64,000 nucleotides of DNA, taken from Escherichia phage vB_EcoP_PE007. Both the position numbers and the translations under genes were made by a program. The notes under the pieces were generated by a model. The model was given only the letters and a program-made list of their open reading frames with translations, was not told where the DNA came from and ran no database searches. Shown in pieces: positions 33,256 to 33,696 of the stretch; the stretch's first letter is position 1, and each line of letters starts with the position of its first letter. The DNA lies in sequence record OQ938542.1. The stretch is one strand, 5' to 3'.

Positions 33256-33696
33256 ATGCAAATCATTTTGAACCAGTCCGAAGTAGAAGCTGCTGTACAG
33301 GCTTATGTCGATGATCAAATCAATCTTGCTGGTGACATCAATATTGTCATCAATGCAGACGGTACAGCTTCCGTTGGTATCAACGAAGAGGTTCATGAAG
33401 ATACTCCACCCGTGGGAGTAGAGAAGAAAACTCGTCGTTCTCGTAAGAACCCACAGGAAGCTAAACATCGTCCGGTAGAACCAGAGCCGGAAGAAGTAGT
33501 TGAAGAGGTAAAGGTAGAAGAAACCCAGACCTCTACTGGTGGTCAGAACGAGAGTTCTACGCCGGAACCTGAAGAAGAAGCAGTAGCTGAACCAGAAGCA
33601 CAAGAAGAAGTTGTGCAGGAAGAAGTTAAGGCTGAAGAACCAGCAGAGAAACCTGCTACTAAGCCTTCACTGTTCGCTGGCCTTAAACGTAGTTAA
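33256..33696 (+). CDS. highly acidic low-complexity protein
   Basis: 146 aa; C-terminal 90 aa dominated by E/P/V/A with EPEPEE-type repeats. Confidence 0.5.
   Translation: MQIILNQSEVEAAVQAYVDDQINLAGDINIVINADGTASVGINEEVHEDTPPVGVEKKTRRSRKNPQEAKHRPVEPEPEEVVEEVKVEETQTSTGGQNESSTPEPEEEAVAEPEAQEEVVQEEVKAEEPAEKPATKPSLFAGLKRS

Follow-up and report, generated by a model that had tools for sequence, protein, structure and literature searches.

A small acidic protein encoded behind the Holliday-junction resolvase of Escherichia phage vB_EcoP_PE007 ends in a terminal peptide of the phage's own single-stranded DNA-binding protein

What might a small and very acidic phage protein do when its gene directly follows that of a Holliday-junction resolvase? 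The question is raised by a stretch of 64,000 nucleotides from Escherichia phage vB_EcoP_PE007 (sequence record OQ938542.1), hereafter the window, in which an open reading frame (ORF) at 33256..33696 on the plus strand encodes 146 residues plus a stop codon. An initial annotation had described the product as an extremely acidic, low-complexity protein behind the recombination genes and had proposed that it could act as a DNA mimic or as a flexible tail like the one that an SSB (single-stranded DNA-binding protein) has. The ORF matched PHROG 7641, a family of unknown function (phrog_7641, E=1.2e-68), with residues 1-146 aligned to profile positions 1-151, and it is syntenic with gp47 of phage N4 and with gp47 of phage St11Ph5, where it is labeled gp47, hypothetical protein; it is called gp47 hereafter. 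The best megablast matches to positions 31000-35000, a region that matched 212 phage records, were the G7C-like Escherichia phages St11Ph5, ECBP1, Bp4, and IME11 (Schitoviridae, Gamaleyavirus; 93-98% identity), and on this similarity the window is that of a G7C-like Schitoviridae phage. The gene order gp43-gp44-gp45-gp46-gp47 matches that of N4, and gp47 sits between the RuvC-like gp46 and a tRNA region. On balance, the comparisons below make it probable that gp47 is a disordered tether that couples the Holliday-junction resolvase to whatever recognizes the termini of N4-type SSBs.

gp47 was labeled hypothetical in every record and PHROG examined, and in the searchable literature it appeared only as a landmark, a map position, or a table entry, with no function given. 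A profile comparison with the PDB returned only a chance match of 19 residues. Homologues numbered 682 at E<=1e-3. In comparison with five relatives, the ratio of nonsynonymous to synonymous substitutions was 0.16-0.34 overall, 0.07-0.19 in the N-terminal head, 0.35-0.48 in the acidic spacer, and 0-0.29 in the C-terminal tip, and the indels in the linker keep the reading frame. gp47 is therefore under purifying selection and is a genuine coding gene rather than a chance ORF, so that the acidic ORF proposed by the initial annotation stands.

The whole protein has an isoelectric point (pI) of 4.35 and a net charge of -20, and per residue it is the second most acidic of the ORFs of at least 100 residues in the window. 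Residues 1-46 are mildly acidic (net -8), residues 47-72 are basic (KKTRRSRKNPQEAKHRP; net +4, pI 10.4), residues 73-131 carry a net charge of -20 with 37% Glu and 80% Glu, Pro, Val, Ala, or Gln, and residues 132-146 are basic (KPATKPSLFAGLKRS; net +4). The last 90 or so residues had been described as almost entirely composed of these five amino acids; the proportion is only 61%, in a stretch that starts basic and ends basic, and the description suits residues 73-131. The EPEPEE and EEV units that had been taken for repeats do recur in composition (EPEPEE once, PEPEE twice, and EEV five times), but Tandem Repeats Finder detected no DNA repeat. Acidic stretches comparable to that of gp47 were found in the ORFs at 9408-9716 (+) and 56081-57301 (-), with net charges of -19 and -22 over 59 residues; the former, with a pI of 4.13, exceeds every other ORF of the window in acidity per residue.

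An AlphaFold2 model made from a 13-sequence alignment predicted that residues 1-44 fold, with predicted local distance difference test (pLDDT) scores of 81-90, into a helix (residues 7-21) and a hairpin (residues 28-32/38-42). Beyond residue 44 the pLDDT was below 70, which predicts the intrinsic disorder that had been suspected, and it dropped below 50 at residues 80-88 and 106-126; the acidic region had no secondary structure. We divided gp47 into a folded alpha/beta N-terminal mini-domain, or head, of residues 1-45 (MQIILNQSEVEAAVQAYV...DGTASVGINEE; 33256..33390, +), a basic patch of residues 46-74 (..DTPPVGVEKKTRRSRKNPQEAKHRPVE; 33391..33477, +), an acidic disordered spacer of residues 75-131 (33478..33648, +), and a C-terminal tip of residues 132-146 (33649..33693, +), which contains a putative SLF docking motif. 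For the head, neither an SSB or OB-fold match nor a structural relative was found, and no paralogue of it was found in the window. Lacking an OB-fold, gp47 does not qualify as an SSB. The patch reads KKTRRSRKNP in the window, with no GRP, and so lacks the R-G-R-P core of an AT-hook. In the fused proteins of roseophages and Rhizobium phages described below (L032 3310-4242, L112, L113, and L119 954-1736), the equivalent patch has AT-hook-like GGRPRK or KRGRPRNK sequences.

A full HMMER scan of 1.84 billion representatives with gp47 residues 1-75 as the query recovered only 14 clusters at 50% identity. The full-length relatives follow one plan, namely, a MQI(T/I)LNQxEV head, a basic patch, a variable acidic spacer, and a near-invariant KPSLFA(G/N)L(K/R)(R/K) end, and the closer ones also keep the motif DTPPVVEKKTRRxR..EAKH(R/V)PVE in the patch. 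gp47 of the window shows the family pattern of a MQ[IVL]xLxQxE[IV] head and a C-terminal SLF tip. Residues P137, S138, L139, F140, and L143 were invariant among 13 representatives at 50% identity. Over 137 homologues, column entropy was lowest at tip residues 136-145 (0.12) and highest in the spacer (0.55), into which 310 of the 389 inserted residues fall. The spacers of distant Schitoviridae have 68-190 residues, 16-31% Asp or Glu, net charges of -4 to -23, and hardly any hydrophobic residues. The conserved information therefore lies in the head and in the tip. The acidic stretch has the behavior of a spacer, and acidity is the least informative feature of gp47. The head and tip are conserved among relatives, whereas the part on which the initial annotation dwelt is the most variable; the annotation overlooked the folded 45-residue N-domain, the basic patch, and the least variable segment, KPSLFAGLKRS.

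These features bear directly on the proposal that gp47 is a DNA mimic whose acidic region blocks restriction enzymes, H-NS, or other host DNA-binding proteins. Mimics of the Ocr and ArdA type are rigid folds that present their charges in a DNA-like array. gp47 resembles them in being a small, very acidic phage protein, and its charge of -20 and 37% Glu over residues 73-131 speak for the proposal. However, its acidic part is predicted to be disordered rather than a rigid charge array, is the least conserved, fastest-evolving, and most indel-rich region of the protein, contains only 16-31% Asp or Glu in homologues with no conserved acidic pattern, and is flanked by conserved elements that are not acidic, the head and the basic tip. 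The gene also lies in the replication and recombination module and not among the early anti-defence genes, is fused to resolvases in other phages, and matched no Pfam family, PADLOC and the anti-defence libraries not having been searched. With neither a rigid acidic fold nor a conserved acidic pattern, gp47 is not an Ocr/ArdA-type mimic, and we found no support for mimicry, which we regard as very improbable.

The proposal of an SSB-like tail fared differently. The extreme C-terminus of gp47, KPSLFAGLKRS, follows the region with pLDDT below 70 and resembles both ends of the phage's own SSB. This N4-type SSB, gp45 (31897..32700, +; phrog_743, E=3e-89), starts with MSLFSNLKEK (MSLFSNLK at 31897-31920) and ends with ..GGKSLFGKR (GKSLFGKR at 32674-32697), and the SSB of phage N4 (N4SSB) starts with MSNLFGNLAG and ends with ..AAKSLFGKK. 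Alignments of 8 and of 121 diverse N4-type SSBs showed no, or almost no, variation at F4 and S262-L263-F264. In an AlphaFold2 model of the SSB built with database homologues, the core (residues 30-233) had pLDDT above 90 and the linker (residues 234-261) below 50; the values of about 70 at residues 1-10 and at least 50 at S262-F264 are the sole hints that the termini might dock on the core. We then collected loci through the resolvase gene (25, then 80) and from named phages (14), extracted the SSB and gp47-like ORFs with hidden Markov models, and derived consensus sequences over 68 non-redundant genomes. The SSB begins with M-S-L-F-G-N-L-K-[ST] and ends with [RK]-K-S-L-F-G-K-K, and the gp47 tip is [KR]-[RKP]-S-L-F-[AG]-[GN]-L-x-[KR], often followed by P-x-N. 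Over all six frames, no window ORF of at least 50 residues other than those of the SSB and gp47 has the full SLF[AGS][GN]L peptide at a terminus. A close variant, SLFANK, opens the ORF at 806-1012 (+), a 68-residue early ORF that begins MRIQTSLFANKS.. and is absent from ECBP1; its homologues are scattered over several unrelated groups of phages, T4-like ones among them, whose genomes measure about 50, 90, and 170 kb, and we consider it probably a coincidence rather than a third carrier of the peptide. A paralogous C-terminal half of this ORF lies at 1664-1849.

The two tips also change together. In eight divergent lineages, the gp47 tip and the SSB C-terminal tip depart from the canonical form alike: Litunavirus DEV (SSB KPASLFS, gp47 TGGSLFS), Luzseptimavirus KPP21 (ASSLFGD, SAAGLFGG), the roseophages of the Rhodovirinae (KASLFDD, KSSIFDVD), Vibrio phage 1.025.O of the Nahantvirus (AGSLFG, KTSLFG), Alteromonas phage PT15-A5 (ADDMFDDD, DDDGMFDD), Pectobacterium phage CB4 of the Cbunavirus (QSDLFL, VLDLFS with three internal DLF copies), Pylas (TKSLFSK, TRSLFART), and Delftia phage RG-2014 (RKSLFPSK, with an internal RKSLFAPK and a terminal RKSLFSGLGK in the gp47-like protein). 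The similarity between the tips over positions -4 to +5 around the Phe was 4.36 within the same genome and 3.79 ± 0.08 after permutation, and none of 10,000 permutations reached 4.36 in this test, which ignores phylogeny. We read the parallel change as two peptides that track one putative co-evolving binding site. The suggestion of an SSB-like tail is thus supported, in that gp47 ends in the SLF peptide of the phage's own SSB and the tips co-vary across the Schitoviridae.

Two of these lineages carry further copies of the motif. The gp47-like protein of CB4 (CB4_79, 262 residues; L116 4466-5254) contains four DLF copies, TTDLFADP, AADLFAEP, SLDLFSDP, and a terminal VLDLFS, an arrangement that suggests multivalent docking. 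A small early protein of the same phage, CB4_008 (L118 2665-2907), ends with ..EELFL, like the CB4 SSB (..SDLFL). RG2014_058 of Delftia phage RG-2014 (L120 1242-2360) has two SLF peptides, of which the internal RKSLFAPK resembles the C-terminal tip of the phage's own SSB and the one at the end belongs to the gp47 type (RKSLFSGLGKVKND).

The second line of evidence connects gp47 with the resolvase. In the window, gp46 (32700..33254, +; phrog_159, E=3.8e-42; annotated as RuvC-like in St11Ph5) ends two nucleotides before the gp47 ATG (..GCG TAA C ATG), with AAGG about nine nucleotides upstream of the start, and the two genes are probably translationally coupled. Across the loci obtained with gp46, the start of the gp47-like ORF lies at most a few nucleotides from the resolvase stop in nearly every case; JWAlpha, which has a homing HNH insertion, and a few truncated contigs depart from this. 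Where a RusA-like gene replaces the RuvC-like one, in Vibrio 1.025.O and Pylas, the gp47-like gene still lies downstream and overlaps its end. Moreover, in at least four lineages a gp47-like region is fused to a RusA-like resolvase: DFL12phi1 orf24 (310 residues), phiCB2047-B (316 residues), Ruegeria V12 (in which the ORF extends upstream of the annotated start), VCO139 'rusA' (265 residues), RHph_Y38 (260 residues), and Delftia RG-2014 (372 residues). Every gp47 module persists in the fused proteins: the head, the patch (basic or AT-hook), the acidic spacer, and the tip. This architecture is also found in PHROGs 14238, 1682, 21721, and 33948. gp47 of the window matches PHROG 14238 only at positions 145-263, the non-nuclease half, the nuclease here being the separate gp46; gp47 is not itself a nuclease. 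Conversely, residues 146-270 of the DFL12phi1 fusion match gp47 PHROG 7641. With the VCO139 fusion as the tblastn query, many unrelated phages gave matches to annotated RusA genes that ended at about residue 139, and longer matches were confined to the Schitoviridae. Two unrelated nucleases share a downstream partner, to which one of them is repeatedly fused; no other observation speaks as strongly for joint action of gp47 and the resolvase.

Taken together, these observations point to a tether, which would work as follows. The head and the basic patch would stay with the resolvase or with DNA, as a separate, coupled polypeptide here and as part of a RusA-like fusion elsewhere, and the basic, AT-hook-like patch probably contacts nucleic acid. 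The disordered spacer would allow the SLF tip to reach a pocket that also takes the SSB termini, and docking there could recruit the resolvase, or time junction resolution, at replication and recombination intermediates marked by the SSB. What the comparisons show is the architecture, the pattern of conservation, the motif common to both proteins, the parallel change of their tips, and the synteny with and fusion to resolvases; binding by the tip, the owner of the pocket, and the effect on resolution are what we infer.

Several points weigh against this reading. The core motif, S-L-F, is short, and shared ancestry, which the permutation test ignores, could explain part of the co-variation; in addition, the lineages of L062, L068, and L091 pair a short SSB tip with a long gp47 tip. 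Operon inheritance could partly account for the conserved gene order. The Pfam RusA model gave no match to the fused proteins at E<=0.01, and their assignment to RusA rests on PHROGs, record annotations, and the tblastn matches to annotated RusA genes. The head is kept in the fused forms and is therefore not simply a handle for binding the resolvase, and because the RuvC-like and RusA-like folds are unrelated, a single head is unlikely to bind both.

Which protein might own the pocket? We rank the SSB core first, the Sak4-like gp44 or the phage DNA polymerase next, and the β′ subunit of host RNA polymerase (RNAP) last. The case for the SSB core is a seven-residue match between the gp47 tip and the N-terminal tail of the SSB. 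In the PDB, the SSB model matched PrgE of plasmid pCF10 best, though weakly (TM 0.29/0.52). PrgE's N-terminal tail binds the neighboring monomer and gives cooperativity (PMC11137577), a precedent for a terminal peptide that docks on an SSB core, although this OB-fold protein has no SLF motif and the likeness concerns the SSB and not gp47.

The same resemblance allows a regulator or decoy of the SSB, for which the resolvase link would be incidental: the gp47 tip would dock on the SSB or titrate an SSB partner, capping or loosening filaments, and the spacer would serve as a local competitor that resembles single-stranded DNA (ssDNA). Over seven residues, SLFAGLK of gp47 compares with SLFSNLK or SLFGNLK of the SSB N-tail, PrgE as the nearest solved relative of the SSB model uses its N-tail for cooperativity, and the acidic tail of T7 gp2.5 competes with ssDNA, as far as references in PMC10359462 describe it. 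We nevertheless find this explanation unlikely. In the lineages with unusual tips, gp47 tracks the C-terminal tip of the SSB and not its N-tail; the RusA-like fusions argue for a functional link with the resolvase, and the PrgE match is weak. By analogy with the T7 gp2.5 tail, the acidic spacer might have a local, ssDNA-like electrostatic role, for example in screening the basic patch of gp47 itself.

The next two candidates for the partner of the tether's tip are suggested by other phages. The Sak4-like ATPase/annealase gp44 (31105..31857, +; PF13479, E=5e-11; phrog_124, E=1.2e-49) may be the partner by analogy with HK620, whose Sak4 depends on the final six residues of the cognate SSB for loading onto SSB-coated DNA (PMC5928155). 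The phage DNA polymerase is a candidate after the example of T7, for which references in PMC10359462 describe binding of the acidic C-tail of gp2.5, and of gp4, to the polymerase, and competition of the gp2.5 tail with ssDNA for its own surface.

Host RNAP β′, the last candidate, comes from work on N4SSB, whose C-terminus is essential for the activation of late transcription via β′ and which contacts a conserved region of β′, the C-terminus of β′ being highly conserved (PMC4496689). On this basis gp47 could instead be a modulator of late transcription, independent of the resolvase, with its tip on the β′ site of N4SSB as a co-activator or competitor that tunes the switch from replication to late genes. 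N4SSB needs its C-terminal residues for activation, gp47 has the same [KR]xSLF core as N4SSB, and it is the last gene of the rightward replication operon, just ahead of the leftward late genes. Against this, the residues flanking SLF vary (basic, none, or acidic) even among phages of similar hosts, at odds with the highly conserved β′ C-terminus (PMC4496689), and the constant adjacency to the resolvase and the repeated fusions are left unexplained; the modulator is accordingly a doubtful explanation. Because the flanks shift from basic to acidic between lineages, a phage-encoded, co-evolving pocket fits better than a conserved host surface. The SLF core, unlike the flanks, is constant, which is a counterpoint to this argument.

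A further host partner to consider for the SLF tip is the β-clamp, DnaN. Bacterial β-clamp-binding peptides follow the consensus QL[SD]LF, and the tip could be a variant that brings both the SSB and the resolvase to the clamp. S138-L139-F140 fits positions 3-5 of the consensus, a few homologues have Q immediately before SLF (RQSLF and TQSLF), and the clamp-binding tail of RB69 polymerase is also a short hydrophobic C-terminal peptide (PMC2988020). However, positions 1-2 are K-P in the window, and K/R and K/R/P in the consensus, instead of Q-L, and the variants DDMFDD and DLFS are unlike the clamp motif. To our knowledge, N4 replication is independent of the host replisome, which also counts against clamp binding, and we give it very little weight.

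A broader extension of the tether is that SLF serves as a family-wide address label of N4-like phages, carried on both ends of the SSB and on the resolvase module and read by one shared pocket, maybe the one through which N4SSB activates RNAP. We consider this improbable. Were it true, one contested site would link replication with junction resolution and with the switch to late transcription and packaging, an N4 counterpart of the T4 clamp code, and gp47 and the resolvase fusions would be an arm that clears branched DNA as the late genes turn on.

The closest comparison for gp47 within its own family is the C-terminal tip of N4 SSB (gp45), a protein of the same family and operon that also ends in a [KR]xSLF core after a low-complexity disordered linker. 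gp47, which is not known to bind ssDNA, differs in having no OB-fold and in its acidic linker, that of the SSB being rich in Gly, Ala, and Pro; its tip is longer (SLFAGLKR versus SLFGKR) and resembles the SSB N-tail equally. Among other systems, the shared-tip logic of T4 is closest, with several proteins of one phage coupled to one hub via short hydrophobic C-termini: gp33, gp55, and gp43 of T4 have interchangeable C-terminal clamp-binding tips behind divergent linkers of variable length (PMC2988020). The T4 hub is its gp45 clamp, whereas no clamp is seen in N4-like phages, and the T4 epitopes are hydrophobic and acidic, whereas the SLF peptide of gp47 and the SSB is hydrophobic and basic. 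T7 gp2.5, as described in the references of PMC10359462, shares with gp47 an acidic flexible tail and a critical aromatic residue near the end; in T7, however, the tail itself is acidic and ends in Phe, whereas in gp47 the spacer is acidic, the tip is basic, and the Phe lies six residues from the end. Bacterial SSBs and the HK620 SSB-Sak4 pair resemble the present system in a folded head, a disordered linker, a short docking tip, and a Sak4-type annealase beside the SSB (PMC5928155). The bacterial tip is acidic with a terminal Phe (DDDIPF), whereas that of gp47 is basic (SLFxxLKR), and only the Alteromonas-phage lineage is acidic (DDMFDD).

gp47 thereby gains an architecture and a partner logic, with F140 or the whole tip as a genetic handle. 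The tether bears on how N4-like phages target their Holliday-junction resolvase and on what the N4SSB termini dock to; that late-transcription activation requires the C-terminus has been recognized since the 1990s. The tether also offers natural examples of two proteins that share a co-evolving short linear motif and of a tail module found both as a separate gene and as a fusion to a non-orthologous enzyme. If the partner is ordinary, for example in SSB self-association, the gain is a modest one in annotation.

Some database records of the proteins compared here look anomalous. In the phage N4 reference (NC_008720; L002 7679-8113), the annotated gp47 ends with ..EEEKKYRKKRLKNQYKPNLLCLQV, and the +1 frame gives ..EVQEEEAKEPVQAKPSLFAGLKR followed by a stop, which is the conserved family tip; the likely cause is either a genuine frameshift or an indel of one base close to an A-run in the reference sequence. 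The SSB of Erwinia phage Rexella (L034/L024) has an annotated start too far upstream, the true start being MTNLFGNL, and that of phiCB2047-B (L113 2771-3415) looks truncated or frameshifted at both ends. The start of Ruegeria V12 orf60 (L112 3601-4275) is too far downstream, so that the RusA-like domain is lost. The gp47-like protein of Alteromonas PT15-A5 (L115 4153-4527) is mislabeled 'trigger factor'.

The remaining features lie around gp47 in the window. Upstream, gp43, a primase, occupies 28838-31048. Opposite gp47, a minus-strand ORF at 33235-33603 encodes 122 residues rich in Phe and Leu and appears merely to shadow the GAA-rich coding strand. A small single-pass membrane ORF of 53 residues with a GTG start (33705..33866, +; from the ORF list; ..DVSAPYIAFIITVLILWK..GGDKPPE) adjoins the 3' end of gp47 and is unannotated in ECBP1 and St11Ph5. 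Of 69 non-redundant Schitoviridae loci, 62 have a similar small ORF with a (S/A)APY(I/L)A motif immediately downstream of gp47, and in many of them it overlaps the stop codon of gp47; because it recurs there, the resolvase, gp47, and the small membrane protein look like a conserved cassette. Farther downstream, ARAGORN identified a tRNA-Ile (anticodon AAT) at 35561-35635 (+), and a strong terminator-like hairpin with a 9-bp stem followed by a T-run was found at 35861-35882 (+). The hairpin falls in the interval that separates gp47 from the gp48/gp49-like genes, a place that bears tRNAs in N4 and its relatives as well.

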